Of a stretch of 64,000 nucleotides of DNA, positions 28,200 through 35,116 are shown in pieces. Source of the stretch: a virus. How positions within the stretch are numbered: position 1 is the stretch's first letter; the number at the start of each line of letters is the position of its first letter. Below the pieces are notes generated by a model that saw nothing but the letters and a program-made list of their open reading frames with translations, was not told the DNA's origin and did not search any database. The position numbers were made by a program, and so were the translations under genes. Location: positions 32,001 to 96,000 of the IMG/VR virus record IMGVR_UViG_3300032242_003148. The stretch is one strand, 5' to 3'.

Positions 28200-28221
28200 A
28201 TTGTTTGTTAATAAAAATATA

Positions 28222-28353
28222 CTCATCTGTAGTGTGTTCGAATCCTGTGCTGTCGAATTCCTCCCAATGTCTGGTTCTAAGTCTACTGTAGCAGACCCCA
28301 CTCTGGGTTTTCCGTAAAGGGACGTAGATACACACAAGCACCCTACAGATGAG
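28222..28353 (-). ncRNA. Unknown structured RNA module with an 11-bp closing helix
   Basis: ctcatctgtag (28222-28232) / ctacagatgag (28343-28353) perfect inverted repeat enclosing internal hairpins. Confidence 0.55.
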
Positions 28354-28426
28354 CAAATTGAACGGGGCGCGACTATAGGGCCATCGTCGTTTAATACAAC
28401 CCGACCGCAAAAGGTTGTACCCGCTA

Positions 28427-28505
28427 GCCAAACTAGGGTAAGCCTTTGTCGTTTACCTAGGAACTTACAGGACGGGGCATGGAGCCCCTTTTCCCCTAGT
28501 TTAGC
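28427..28505 (-). ncRNA. Unknown structured RNA module starting 4 nt after the tRNA-Tyr CCA
   Basis: Minus strand GCTAAACTAGGG...CCCTAGTTTGGC (12 bp, one G-U) enclosing GGGGC-TCCAT-GCCCC. Confidence 0.55.
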
Positions 28506-28509
28506 AAAT

Positions 28510-28594
28510 TGGTGGGTAGAGAAGGACTCGAACCTTCGAACTCCAAGGAGAGGAGATTTACAGTCTCCGGCAATTGCCGCTATGCGATCTACCC
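28510..28594 (-). tRNA. tRNA-Tyr(GTA)
   Basis: GGGTAGA...GGAGA CTGTAAA TCTCC, long variable arm, GAAGG TTCGAGT CCTTC, TCTACCC ACCA. Confidence 0.95.
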
Positions 28595-28604
28595 ATTAAA
28601 ATTG

Positions 28605-28677
28605 TGGAGGTAAGGAGACTCGAACTCCTGACATTCTGCTTGCAAAGCAGACGCTCTACCAACTGAGCTATACCCCC
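28605..28677 (-). tRNA. tRNA-Ala(TGC)
   Basis: GGGGGTA TAGCTCAGTTGGTAGAGC, TCTGC TTTGCAA GCAGA, G3:U70, no encoded CCA. Confidence 0.95.
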
Positions 28678-28678
28678 G

Positions 28679-28753
28679 TGGTGCACGATGAGGGGATCGA
28701 ACCCCCGACCTTGCCCGTGTAAAGGGCCTGCTCTACCGCTAAGCTAATCGTGC
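28679..28753 (-). tRNA. tRNA-Val(TAC)
   Basis: GCACGAT...GCCC TTTACAC GGGC...GGGGG TTCGATC CCCTC ATCGTGC ACCA. Confidence 0.93.
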
Positions 28754-28759
28754 ATTAAT

Positions 28760-29200
28760 TTATTTATTTTTAATCTTTTTTGCTCCAGGTGCAACTATTT
28801 TATAACCTAAAGAAGATAAAGTTTTTTTACTACTCTCTATTTTCTCAGCTATCAGTTTAGCGCAACGTTTTTCAATAGCCTTCAAGGTCAATTTAGCTGT
28901 CTTCCATTCAAGCTCGTTTACTTCAAAATAGAAGTCTGAACCTAACTCTGCTAGTTCATAGTCCACAGGTTCTCCATCTGAGTTTCTTTCTAGGATACTG
29001 CACTGATTTCCGCAGGCACAAGTAACCCATTCACTAGACATCTTGATTTCTTTCTTAAAGCGCTTTCTAGCTTCTTTAATATAATCATCAGACATGTCGA
29101 GATAACTTTTTATTTCTTTTGGCTGTTCTGCTATACGCTCGTCTAGGAATTTATTCCAATCAAACTTTTCTTTATTTTTAGTCTCTGAATATGTTTTCAT
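28760..29200 (-). CDS. Hypothetical protein
   Basis: 146 aa with a WVTCACG motif and an (AC)n leader. Confidence 0.7.
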   Translation of the reverse strand: MKTYSETKNKEKFDWNKFLDERIAEQPKEIKSYLDMSDDYIKEARKRFKKEIKMSSEWVTCACGNQCSILERNSDGEPVDYELAELGSDFYFEVNELEWKTAKLTLKAIEKRCAKLIAEKIESSKKTLSSLGYKIVAPGAKKIKNK

Positions 29201-29293
29201 TTGTGTGTGTGTGTTAAGATTGTGCGAGTTTTATTTTTATCTCATTGGCCTTTACTCGCATTTGCCCTTCAGTTGGGTGCGACCACAACATAT

Positions 29294-29367
29294 TGGCTAC
29301 CCCGCATGGATTTGAACCATGAATGTTAGTGCCAAAAACTAAAGTGTTACCGTTACACTACAGGGTA
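29294..29367 (-). tRNA. tRNA-Gln(TTG)
   Basis: TACCCTG TA GTGT AACGGTA ACAC, TTAGT TTTTGGC ACTAA, CATGG TTCAAAT CCATG, GCCA end. Confidence 0.92.
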
Positions 29368-32799: not shown

Positions 32800-33239
32800 A
32801 TCGAACCCCTGTCACTTACTCATTTCAATCAACCGTGTACATGCTTTTCACATTTAATATAAGAACCACAATAATGTGTAAAAGCGCAGTTCAGATTTCC
32901 AACTTAACGCAATTGGTGCGTATGCGAGTTATACCCTCACAACATAATCGAGGTACCCTTTTGTAGTACTGGGCATCGGGCGTCCCTGTACCGTTATTGC
33001 TACTAGCGGCTCTTGCCGCTGCGGTTAGGCAGCGAGAAGCTCAGCGTCAGCATAGCCATACTTTGCAAGAATGGCATCTGCCTCGGCGAGGCTAGGAGCA
33101 AGCATCTCGTTAGAGTTTGCTTTTATTTTTGTTCTCAGATGATTAAGGAGGCCAACTGAGTTCCTCCGCATGTGGGTGTGATATCTATTTGTAAGCTCGA
33201 GTGCCTGTAACGCCCCCAAATTTTTATAAGTGTATTAAA

Positions 33240-34022
33240 TTATTTAAGCCTAGTAAAGCAAAAGCTGCCTTCTGGAAGTTCTGCTCCGTTAGCTCCTGGG
33301 CTATAATAAACGTGAGGTTTAGAGGGTATTAATACCTTACCAAACTTCTTGGCGATTAACACCACTGTTTCCATAATGCCCAGAGCATATGTATGTACCA
33401 GATTTGAGGTGTTGTTTTTGGTGTTCCGTAGCCACATCTTATCGTCATCAACATAGAGCTGATGTCTATAAGCGGATTTCTCCCCGATCTTTATTGTTTC
33501 CTCTCTGGTATATTTACATCCACGAGCAAGCATGAATGTAAAAATAATATTACCAAGAGGTTTTAACATTTCGGTATCACTCAATAGTTCTTCTATATAG
33601 CCTATAATGCCTCTATTAAATGTACCCATGAAGTCTCCGTAAATGATGTCAAAACCAGCATCTGTGGGATTAAACATCCTAGAGTTAAAATCTCTAACCA
33701 CCACTTCTTCCCATTTGTTGGGTAGTAGTTCTGTTTTTACGTTTTTACCATTAATCGTGGCAGCTACTTCTAGCGCTTTCTTATAAACTACAGGATTTGA
33801 CTCTGTGCCTAGAAAGTTAATCTTATTATTAGGGAAGTTCTGAATCAACTGGCTCTCCCACAGCCACTTCTCTGCAGGTAATGATAAAACATTAACTGGT
33901 TGATTTCTATACTCACGATATGTCATGAGCTTCTTGAGATCCCTATTGATATAAAGATCATTGTCTCTTTTTGCCTTACGGGCAGGTGAAGCCCAATCTA
34001 TTACTTCTACGTTTTTAGCCAT
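33240..34022 (-). CDS. Class I SAM-dependent methyltransferase-like protein
   Basis: VLSLPAE motif I-like, FLGTESNP motif II, FDIIYGDFMG motif IV, GNIIFTF. Confidence 0.55.
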   Translation of the reverse strand: MAKNVEVIDWASPARKAKRDNDLYINRDLKKLMTYREYRNQPVNVLSLPAEKWLWESQLIQNFPNNKINFLGTESNPVVYKKALEVAATINGKNVKTELLPNKWEEVVVRDFNSRMFNPTDAGFDIIYGDFMGTFNRGIIGYIEELLSDTEMLKPLGNIIFTFMLARGCKYTREETIKIGEKSAYRHQLYVDDDKMWLRNTKNNTSNLVHTYALGIMETVVLIAKKFGKVLIPSKPHVYYSPGANGAELPEGSFCFTRLK

Positions 34023-34074
34023 GTTTGTTTTATGGTTATGGTTGGTGTTTTGGTTTAGGGGAGGGGACAGTTAA

Positions 34075-34192
34075 AAATAAGTTTGTGTGATCATCACCAC
34101 TTAGCAGATTAAATACCACCAGCGTGTGGTTAAAAATCAATCTACTAACCGTGTCGCCAGATCTCCTGGGCGCTCTACTCACAAGCTTATTT
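34075..34192. ncRNA. Unknown 118-nt three-way-junction RNA module
   Basis: aaataagtttgtg / cacaagcttattt closing helix. Internal ttagcagatt/aatctactaa and cgccag/ctgggcg arms. Confidence 0.55.
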
Positions 34193-34429
34193 AAATTCGG
34201 GGCGCGTTCCTGCCAAGACTTCTGCAATTGTCATTAGCAAGGCGGGTGGTTTGTTCATTGTCTTTGCAGAGAACCTATGAGGTTGTCACCAAATATGGGG
34301 TTATACCATATTGACCTATTAGGAGCGTACTTAATTACGATACGTTCCATTTTTGCTGCGCCCAATCCCCCAGCTAGTTTAGCCGGGACGCTCTATGCCT
34401 AGTTGGCTATTTATACTCGCATAGACGAG

Positions 34430-34533
34430 TTTGAAACACACCCGTGTTGTACCATACACAATCCAAAGCACGCACTAATTGGCTATGTATCGTCGCAGGA
34501 TCTCCCTGCACCCTATTCGGGGAGTGCTTCAAA
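34430..34533 (-). ncRNA. Unknown structured RNA module
   Basis: tttgaaacac / gtgcttcaaa closing helix (G-U on the minus strand), continued by cccg/cggg. Confidence 0.45.
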
Positions 34534-34536
34534 AAT

Positions 34537-34658
34537 GAGGATCTGTACGCCCGTTTGCTATCTATCTCGGAGCAAGGCAGGGGTCTCGAGATCCCGCTTG
34601 CTTGTATAGACAATATCAACCGTGGACCTTTGGTTAATTAGCGGGCGTACAGATCTTC
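34537..34658 (-). ncRNA. Unknown 122-nt three-way-junction RNA module
   Basis: gatctgtacgcccg (34540-34553) / cgggcgtacagatc (34642-34655) 14-bp perfect closing helix with two internal arms. Confidence 0.6.
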
Positions 34659-34671
34659 CCCCCAAAAAGCT

Positions 34672-34790
34672 AAATGTAACATGCTATCTTCTGTAAGGAA
34701 GATGCACGTTGTTGGGTGTGGGGTTTGTTAACCGATTGATTTACCGCTATACCCTAAATTAATAGAGCCCAGCAAATCGTGGTTACATTT
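34672..34790 (-). ncRNA. Unknown 119-nt RNA module directly after the putative promoter
   Basis: aaatgtaac/gttacattt closing helix. Internal atcttc/gaagat and ttgttggg/cccagcaa arms. Confidence 0.5.
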
Positions 34791-34791
34791 T

Positions 34792-34828
34792 ATTATACCG
34801 CAAAAAATGTGTGTTCTAAATGGGGGGG
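34792..34828 (-). promoter_or_regulatory. Putative promoter: C7-N24-TATAAT (TTTAGA-N17-TATAAT)
   Basis: Minus strand CCCCCCCATTTAGAACACACATTTTTTGCGGTATAAT. Same geometry as 35441-35476. Confidence 0.6.
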
Positions 34829-35116
34829 TTAGCACCCATTTAGAAGCTGATTAAGTCTCTTTATTTCTGCCTTGTCGGCTCTACGTATCTCAAACAAATC
34901 ATCAATACTTACGAATGTTCTATCATCATTCTTATTAACTTTCACAATCTTGGGATGGTTCTCTAGCACCTTAATCTTTTCATTAAGTTTCTCTAGTTCT
35001 GCCATTAATTCATTCCTGGTGACCGTTAGCTGTACTGCCATATTGGCGTGAACTTCTAAGTTGTTCTTAAGCTCTGTGTTTTCCCTGATCAACTTGTCTA
35101 CTATTTCGTGGCTCAT
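34829..35116 (-). CDS. Coiled-coil hypothetical protein
   Basis: Start re-assigned to the ATG at 35116 (AAAACATACATG leader). Confidence 0.6.
   Translation of the reverse strand: MSHEIVDKLIRENTELKNNLEVHANMAVQLTVTRNELMAELEKLNEKIKVLENHPKIVKVNKNDDRTFVSIDDLFEIRRADKAEIKRLNQLLNGC

Follow-up and report, generated by a model that had tools for sequence, protein, structure and literature searches.

The window analyzed here, 64,000 nucleotides (nt) in length, corresponds to bases 32001–96000 of the linear IMG/VR virus record IMGVR_UViG_3300032242_003148 (165,606 base pairs (bp), approximately 85% complete), a tailed phage as judged by its terminase, DNA polymerase, and baseplate protein genes. Between positions 28200 and 34830 its minus strand carries five transfer RNA (tRNA) genes, a transfer-messenger RNA (tmRNA) gene, and approximately 19 further GC-richer modules, including a pistol ribozyme, in blocks devoid of open reading frames (ORFs). 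We read this region, with somewhat better than even confidence, as a modular stable-RNA island of a large uncultured phage. Its tRNAs, tmRNA, pistol, and upward of ten orphan structured RNAs follow one another head to tail on one strand, and long precursors transcribed from it would be cut into small RNAs. Approximately eleven of the modules are well-supported new RNA folds; a further five to eight are unproven.

Structured units and their folding

The units (U1a to U5e), 21 including the pistol, were delimited by reading the minus strand of the ORF-free blocks, among which a few small protein genes are interspersed. The GC content of these blocks is 0.44–0.52, compared with approximately 0.35–0.40 in the flanking genes. 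Terminal helices are formed by 34537–34553 with 34642–34658 and by 31606–31622 with 31754–31770 (both 17 nt, 94% complementary), by 28216–28236 with 28339–28359 (21 nt, 86%), and by 31252–31267 with 31327–31342 (16 nt, 88%). The original prediction, made from the letters of the window, had described GC-richer units each closed by its own terminal helix, and this description is confirmed.

Folding of each unit was compared with that of 200 dinucleotide shuffles, a check proposed with the original prediction, and it exceeds these controls: the z-score is negative in 20 of the 21 units and −2.8 or lower in ten. The strongest values are those of U5b (−5.2), U4a and U4d (both −4.7), U4i (−4.2), U1a (−3.3), U5c and U1c (both −3.2), U3 (−3.1), U4h (−2.9), and U5a (−2.8). 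Unremarkable values were obtained for U2a (−1.1), U4g (−0.9), U4f (−0.8), U4b (−0.7), U2b (−0.5), and U1b (+0.2).

Relatives and covariation

Relatives were collected using as probes the conserved RNA cores and a protein of 260 amino acids (aa) encoded between block 5 and the tmRNA gene; all are uncultured-virus or metagenome contigs. Close relatives with 94–99% identity (L002/L013, L003/L014, and L009–L011) make up clade 1 together with the window. Clade 2 (L004–L007, L012, L015, and L016) shows approximately 70–74% identity, clade 3 consists of L017, in which the order of the modules is different, and clade 4 (L021/L032) is 70–85% identical.

In eleven modules the helices are maintained by compensatory changes in three related clades at 65–85% identity. 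Two controls were applied, in which the pairing partners were slid by 1–3 columns or the sequences were shuffled 500 times, and in five modules the counts exceed both, none of the shuffles (0/500) equaling them. U2a (6 sequences, 58 pairs, 97.7% paired) possesses 11 both-sided changes compared with 0–3 after sliding; U3 (5 sequences, 44 pairs, 97.7% paired), 7 compared with 0–1; U5b (5 sequences, 40 pairs, 92.0% paired), 12 compared with 0–2; U4d (3 sequences, 50 pairs, 94.0% paired), 17 compared with 1–6; and U4b, pseudoknot included (3 sequences, 20 pairs, 91.7% paired), 9 compared with 0–2. Both-sided pairs number six in U5d, five in U4i, and five (of 14) in U4a, while RNAalifold reports 13 covarying pairs in U4c (window versus L012), ten in U5e, and five in U1a. 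The covariation anticipated for homologues is thus present, and the evidence is best regarded as strong counts, convincing by their number, rather than as formal probabilities. In the remaining modules U4e, U4g, U4h, U5a, U5c, U1b, U1c, and U2b, high conservation or a narrow distribution precludes such an analysis.

Small ORFs in the blocks were considered and rejected. When 40 frames of at least 25 aa were compared with clades 2–4 by tblastn, the matches were partial, spread over several frames, or interrupted by stops. The best of these frames, 37 codons in U3, is kept in three clades and is frameshifted by a 1-nt indel in L032, and U2a is not coding because one of its hairpins carries a 14-nt indel. 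The modules are not coding: their frames are not kept and their indels are not multiples of three.

Modular organization

A presence/absence matrix reveals U2a, U3, U5d, and the tmRNA in all four clades. Clades 1, 3, and 4 share the pistol, U4a, U4b, U2b, and U1a; clades 1, 2, and 4 share U4d and U4e; and clades 1, 2, and 3 share U4g. U4c and U4i are found in clades 1 and 2, and U5a, U5c, and U4h in clade 1 only. In L017 a block of pistol, U5d, and U5e lies directly before the tmRNA, and the gene for the 260-aa protein is located elsewhere. The modules are therefore independent units, which are gained and lost one by one.

This distribution bears on whether the 870-nt tract 31257–32125 could be one giant ornate RNA of the GOLLD or ROOL type, a reading that its size and its position beside tRNA and tmRNA genes would fit. 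Each sub-unit of the tract, however, closes on itself, and the GOLLD and ROOL models gave no match at E≤5 in 27800–35200. L012 is without U4a and U4b, L017 retains only U4a, U4b, and U4g, and L032 is without U4c and U4i. Since the modules come and go singly in the relatives, we regard a single giant RNA as hardly credible.

The phage is without a near relative in culture: comparison of 28000–35000 with 50,697 phage records by blastn showed matches to cultured phages in the tRNA genes only. The core pattern of U5d gave 86 matches in IMG/VR, which are real only in the present phage group, and a 19-mer of U2a gave one chance match among 185,579 prokaryote genomes. Within the limits of these exact-core searches, the modules appear to be confined to the present phage group.

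Strand, spacers, and promoter

The minus strand carries nearly every gene around the island, and the tRNAs, the tmRNA, the pistol, and the flanking genes are all encoded on it. Consensus folds are more stable on this strand in 15 of 21 units, and G·U cells outnumber A·C cells by 222 to 30 in the minus-strand structures, a count which is biased, the structures having been predicted on that strand, but which points the same way as each of the known RNAs here. The preference for the tRNA strand suggested in the original prediction is upheld by both results.

The inverted repeats might alternatively be elements acting at the level of DNA, such as insertions resembling miniature inverted-repeat transposable elements, recombination sites, or endonuclease sites. 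The gain and loss of modules and the presence of a homing endonuclease gene would be in keeping with this, as would a 107-nt deletion that disables U5b in L013/L010 by removing its 5′ arm and interior. That deletion, however, leaves one arm in place and is not the excision of a unit. Neither repeated copies nor target-site duplications were found, the G·U pairs strongly favor a single strand, and covariation in internal, multiple hairpins extends well beyond the terminal repeats; a DNA-level explanation is accordingly very improbable. That the units share no primary sequence, as had been claimed, holds insofar as they constitute neither a repeat nor a CRISPR array. It fails in a single case, a 23-nt stretch (83%) common to the pistol core and U5c.

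The AAATT-type spacers that had been noted between units take the form of AAWTT at 14 unit boundaries. Elsewhere within the ORF-free blocks this motif is present only in one loop of U3 and in the tmRNA intron. It sits in the short inter-unit gaps and also directly 3′ of the CCA of the tRNAs and the tmRNA. These RNAs lie 3–10 nt from the adjoining modules; U2a, for instance, stops 4 nt short of tRNA-Asn, and 4 nt separate tRNA-Tyr from the start of U1a.

The array is headed by a candidate sigma-70-like promoter, TTTAGA-17-TATAAT (34820–34792, minus strand), which matches at 10 of 12 positions and corresponds to the promoter-like site previously proposed; its −10 box GGTATAATAAA is preserved in the 70%-identical clade 2. 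A sequence scan found no convincing minus-strand terminator inside the array.

Pistol ribozyme and module U5d

A search of both strands of 27800–35200 with Rfam 15 (E≤5, permissive filters) returned only tRNA, tmRNA, and Pistol as matches of substance. The pistol self-cleaving ribozyme (RF02679; 34362–34430, minus strand) reaches 60.5 bits, with the gathering score set at 34.5, and covers model positions 1–68 of 68, which overturns the statement that none of the units was recognizable as a known family. The other modules matched no Rfam family, and for 6S RNA, signal recognition particle RNA, ribonuclease (RNase) P RNA, and Y RNA nothing was recovered beyond a 19.9-bit YrlA match over a tRNA; the expectation of novelty, and with it the Rfam comparison called for in the original prediction, thus came out as stated for GOLLD, ROOL, Y RNA, and 6S RNA and otherwise for the pistol. 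The phage genome contains neither a TROVE/Ro60 nor an RtcB gene.

The module possesses the pistol pseudoknot, the P1 loop UCUAUGC being complementary to the downstream internal strand GCAUAGA, and its counterparts in L002/L003, L017, and L032 score 60–61 bits. Immediately 3′ of the cleavage site stands an A, the alignment placing GGA opposite GGU of the Rfam consensus; GGGGGAUUGG is common to all four clades. As a member of its class the module is a full-length match with a P1-loop pseudoknot, conserved in three clades, and it explains one module only.

Directly downstream lies U5d (34201–34363, minus strand; z −1.9), which is present in all four clades and contains the invariant cores GUGAACAAA and GGAACGCGCC. 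The ribozyme ends in GGGGGAUUGG, and in every phage with a pistol its two terminal G residues are also the first of the U5d closing helix, GGGCGC/GCGCCC. The two modules are directly apposed in three clades, and U5d is always next after the pistol. Cleavage is predicted 2 nt before the U5d closing helix, and the position of the ribozyme, immediately beside a second conserved RNA, suggests that it serves to generate the 5′ end of U5d.

On the other side of the pistol, U5c (34433–34531, minus strand) is restricted to clade 1 and has no Rfam match at E≤5. It shares the 23-nt stretch with the pistol core; examined as a second pistol, it was rejected, as it has no pseudoknot complement and no covariance-model match.

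A genuine pistol in the array raises the possibility that one or more of the orphan modules are themselves self-cleaving ribozymes, either belonging to an undescribed class or strongly diverged from a known one. Self-cleaving ribozymes tend to lie close to one another, and twister-sister, hatchet, and pistol were reportedly discovered by searching near known ribozymes (Weinberg and coworkers, 2015). The stretch in common between U5c and the pistol, and the pseudoknots or many invariant unpaired nucleotides of U4b and U4d, would accord with this. Against it, the search detailed above yielded no match to the hammerhead, twister, twister-sister, hatchet, or hepatitis delta virus (HDV)-like models, and U5c is without the pistol pseudoknot complement. 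We consider a further ribozyme rather doubtful.

tmRNA and its intron

The tmRNA gene (32130–33217, minus strand) is interrupted in the T-loop and consists of exons 33217–32800 and 32146–32130. The 5′ acceptor strand is located at 33217 and the end of the T-arm 5′ half near 32800; the T-arm 3′ half, the acceptor, and CCA occupy 32146–32130. ARAGORN accepts the spliced sequence of 435 nt, which displays tRNA-like ends with G3·U70, a T-arm, CCA, a resume codon, and a tag reading frame of 31 codons ending in LLAA. When scanned unspliced, the gene gave a sub-threshold Rfam match at 32797–33200 (35 bits); alleles that are intron-less score 77–101 bits with RF00023, compared with 35–39 bits for those with the intron.

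The intervening 653 nt (32147–32799, minus strand) have features of a group I-type intron at T-loop position 7. Exactly 32799–32147 are missing from L002, L010, L011, L012, L004, and L017, which represent alleles of clades 1–3, while L003/L014 and L032 carry the intron. A U precedes the 5′ splice site, P1 joins exon UCGAU to intron GUCG through 4 bp, and the last intron nucleotide, 32147, is G. P1, P2 (with a GNRA loop), P3, P6, P7.1, P8, and P9 were placed by hand, and compensatory changes in P6 and P7.1 are seen in L032; P7 has only 4 bp. The generic group I model of Rfam (RF00028) did not match the intron even at E≤10. L032 (3435–3445) contains two extra bases at the 5′ splice site relative to window position 32800, GAUUCACAUAAAG versus GAUUCAUAAAG, so that the alleles may not be spliced at precisely the same junction.

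Within the intron, in antisense orientation, lies a homing endonuclease gene (32239–32649, plus strand), the 136-aa product of which matches phrog_5046, "HNH endonuclease" (E 1.6e-19), and weakly LAGLIDADG_1 (E 5e-4). Group I introns in the T-loop of tmRNA have been described from 883 sequences, mostly at loop position 7 and in 4.1% of cases with a LAGLIDADG homing endonuclease gene (PMC11915505). The window intron resembles these in its insertion site, the U at −1 paired to G in P1, the terminal G, and the internal homing endonuclease gene; it differs in that the tmRNA is phage-borne and the endonuclease gene antisense. It is best regarded as a new member of this already documented group, with splicing predicted.

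Positions 34050–34074, upstream of the gene for the 260-aa protein, are a 25-nt copy (84%) of 32129–32153, the end of the intron and the tmRNA 3′ exon. The copy is found only in clade 1 and may be the scar of recombination at the tmRNA 3′ end. Block 34757–34051 was also examined as a second intron-bearing tRNA-like gene; this was rejected, there being no 5′ half of a T-arm, and the motif is absent in clade 2.

Individual modules

The modules not yet described are given here in the direction of reading, all on the minus strand. U5a (34662–34757) is a two-hairpin module limited to clade 1, where its homologues are near-identical, and is absent from clades 2–4. U5b (34538–34657) forms a three-way junction closed by a helix of 15 bp and contains a 10-nt loop, AAAGGUCCAC, that is invariant. 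U5e (34078–34189; z −2.4) comprises multiple hairpins and the conserved motif UGUGAGUAGAG; it is not a leader of the gene for the 260-aa protein because in L017 it is the tmRNA that follows it.

Modules U4a to U4i follow the tmRNA. U4a (32072–32112), located just after this gene, is a long hairpin whose apical part is invariant and whose stem varies. U4b (31970–32064) is a pseudoknotted module whose structure was drawn by hand; the pseudoknot CCCA/UGGG becomes CCCU/AGGG in L017, an A-U to U-A exchange, and the low minimum free energy (MFE) z-score of this module is consistent with a pseudoknot. U4c (31777–31958; z −1.9), approximately 180 nt, is closed by UCCUCC/GGAGGA, and U4d (31609–31767), approximately 160 nt, by a 14-bp helix in which 9 of 14 pairs are replaced among relatives. 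U4e (31513–31602; z −1.4) is approximately 90% identical across clades 1, 2, and 4 and exhibits one-sided changes only, a weak indication of structure. U4f (31474–31512) is a weak, poorly conserved hairpin and may be a mere spacer. U4g (31381–31417) is a small H-type pseudoknot candidate, CACUG/CAGUG plus UCCGG/CCGGA, read from the sequence; it does not vary within clades 1 and 2, is 86% identical in L017, and therefore yields no covariation. U4h (31343–31368) is a short hairpin, and U4i (31257–31337) a three-way module with an 11-bp closing helix.

U3 (30505–30645) is a multi-branch junction composed of a closing helix and four hairpin arms. A gene for a DUF6378 protein (30671–30973, minus strand; E 2e-22) lies directly upstream of it in all clades. 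U2a (29456–29637), approximately 185 nt, contains a fully conserved stretch of approximately 50 nt. U2b (29219–29289), a 70-nt element after tRNA-Gln, is 96–100% identical in L017 and L032 and 81% in L013/L014; its fold is weak and its structure not established. U1a (28427–28505) is a three-way junction. Both U1b (28362–28425), a weak module that is not established, and U1c (28220–28355), approximately 135 nt with a 13-bp closing helix, have L032 as their sole homologue, at 93% and 95% identity, respectively, with one-sided changes only in U1c.

Transcription, processing, and possible roles

The strand, the independence of the structured units, the conserved promoter-like site, the lack of a detectable internal terminator, and the close apposition of pistol, tRNAs, and tmRNA to the adjoining modules, which offers a route of processing, lend partial support to the original prediction of a polycistronic operon giving rise to many small RNAs, which is plausible; what did not stand is that all of it is new, since one unit is a Pistol and 653 nt form the tmRNA intron. 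We propose that long precursors would be transcribed at least from the promoter-like site at 34820–34792. RNase P and 3′-end enzymes would act at the tRNAs and the tmRNA and thereby free the adjoining modules. The A/U-rich AAWTT spacers resemble RNase E sites, for which reason an RNase E-type cut is proposed there; in E. coli this enzyme matures tRNA 3′ ends and tRNA precursors (PMC5291269). Self-cleavage of the pistol would form the 5′ end of U5d, since the last two G of the ribozyme start the U5d closing helix. Ends paired in a helix are the usual source of exonuclease resistance in stable RNAs, and the 7–15-bp helix of paired ends would protect each RNA once released. In their distribution the modules resemble separate accessory genes, singly gained or lost by related phages as tRNA genes are.

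The modules might instead act in cis within mRNAs and tRNA precursors, as leaders, 3′ stabilizers, or barriers to RNases and exonucleases that govern how strongly the neighboring small ORFs are expressed and how much tRNA is made; they would then not be free-standing RNAs with a function of their own. Every block stops right at an ORF (34022, 31228, 30483, 29200, and approximately 28199), and U3 lies between the DUF6378 gene and a 68-aa ORF in all clades. Yet up to nine different complex folds follow one another without an ORF in 31257–32112, modules move or vanish while the neighboring genes stay, and in L017 U5e stands before the tmRNA and not before the gene for the 260-aa protein. The pseudoknots and long invariant loops of U5b, U4b, and U2a likewise exceed the needs of a stabilizer hairpin. 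A general cis-acting role is, on this evidence, unlikely though worth keeping in view.

Several points weigh against a stable-RNA island of trans-acting modules. A small ORF follows closely on every ORF-free block, and some modules could therefore be cis leaders. U2a, the best-conserved module, folds no better than shuffled sequence (z −1.1). The comparisons involve four clades and 3–6 distinct sequences per module, with a shuffle control that ignores phylogeny, and five or six modules (U4e, U4f, U4g, U2b, U1b, and U5a) rest on one fold or plain conservation. Finally, the modules are known here from their sequence anatomy.

The modules presumably act in trans, and as to their role our best guess is binding to proteins of the host or the phage. 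Invariant loops such as AAAGGUCCAC of U5b, together with the stretch of approximately 50 nt in U2a, suggest partner binding; roles in protein sequestration or as decoys are speculation. A bolder version would treat the locus as a phage RNA toolbox, in which several orphan modules are new RNA classes, either self-cleaving ribozymes or decoys neutralizing host defense or RNA-processing proteins, that are traded singly like protein anti-defense genes; we put this forward tentatively, as a proposal with the balance of probability well against it.

Neighboring genes

The tRNA genes, all on the minus strand and identified by both ARAGORN and Rfam, are those for Asn (29377–29451), Gln (29294–29367), and Val, Ala, and Tyr (together 28510–28753). 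Between U2b and tRNA-Val lies a 146-aa ORF without any family (28760–29200, minus strand), where L013 and L014 have approximately 100 nt; the region looks like another inserted cassette of the island.

The 260-aa protein (33240–34022, minus strand) belongs to no Pfam or PHROG family and is encoded near the tmRNA in all four clades. Its predicted model is of low confidence (predicted local distance difference test score 56), and fold matches are confined to class I S-adenosylmethionine-dependent methyltransferases at template modeling scores of 0.3–0.4. Some of these are tRNA methyltransferases, which with a model of this quality is a lead only; the protein may be a candidate RNA-modifying enzyme.

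Outside the island, a match to the Rfam abiF RNA (24887–24922, minus strand) scores 37.3 bits in the window and 50 bits in clade 2. It resembles a terminator-type hairpin following a 350-aa ORF, and no Abi_2/AbiF protein is detectable nearby.

Comparison with known systems

A close parallel is found in coliphage T4, whose tRNA cluster reportedly includes species 1 and 2 (rnaC and rnaD; Abelson and coworkers; Broida and Abelson, 1985), small stable RNAs of unknown function said to be transcribed together with the tRNAs and freed by the enzymes that process these. The window modules are likewise encoded among tRNA genes on the same strand, and their co-transcription and release would follow the same course. 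Compared with the two RNAs of T4, the island holds more than ten different folds plus a tmRNA and a ribozyme, and outside the tRNAs it has no similarity to cultured phages.

GOLLD and ROOL are often located near tRNAs in phages (PMC5737381) and are single RNAs of 500–800 nt that form multimeric cages (PMC5737381; 10.1101/2024.12.08.627333). They share with the island the character of phage or prophage structured RNAs beside tRNAs, possibly co-transcribed and with no assigned function, whereas the window contains many independent modules of 40–190 nt without a match to their covariance models. HDV-like theta ribozymes adjoin phage tRNAs and process tRNA 3′ ends (PMC10879173). In both cases a small self-cleaving ribozyme sits beside a functional RNA in a phage array, presumably defining an RNA end, but the window ribozyme is a pistol and precedes U5d, which is not a tRNA.

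What is new in the window would thus be the approximately eleven orphan folds, the pistol module and the tmRNA intron being of already known kinds. Phage tRNA clusters have long been known to hold a few stable RNAs of unknown role. The locus described here presents the same idea at a larger scale, with at least eleven conserved folds with covariation in 6.6 kb, beside a ribozyme and a tmRNA, exchangeable among related phages. It offers a compact candidate set for new RNA functions and a natural case of a pistol placed to form the end of another RNA.

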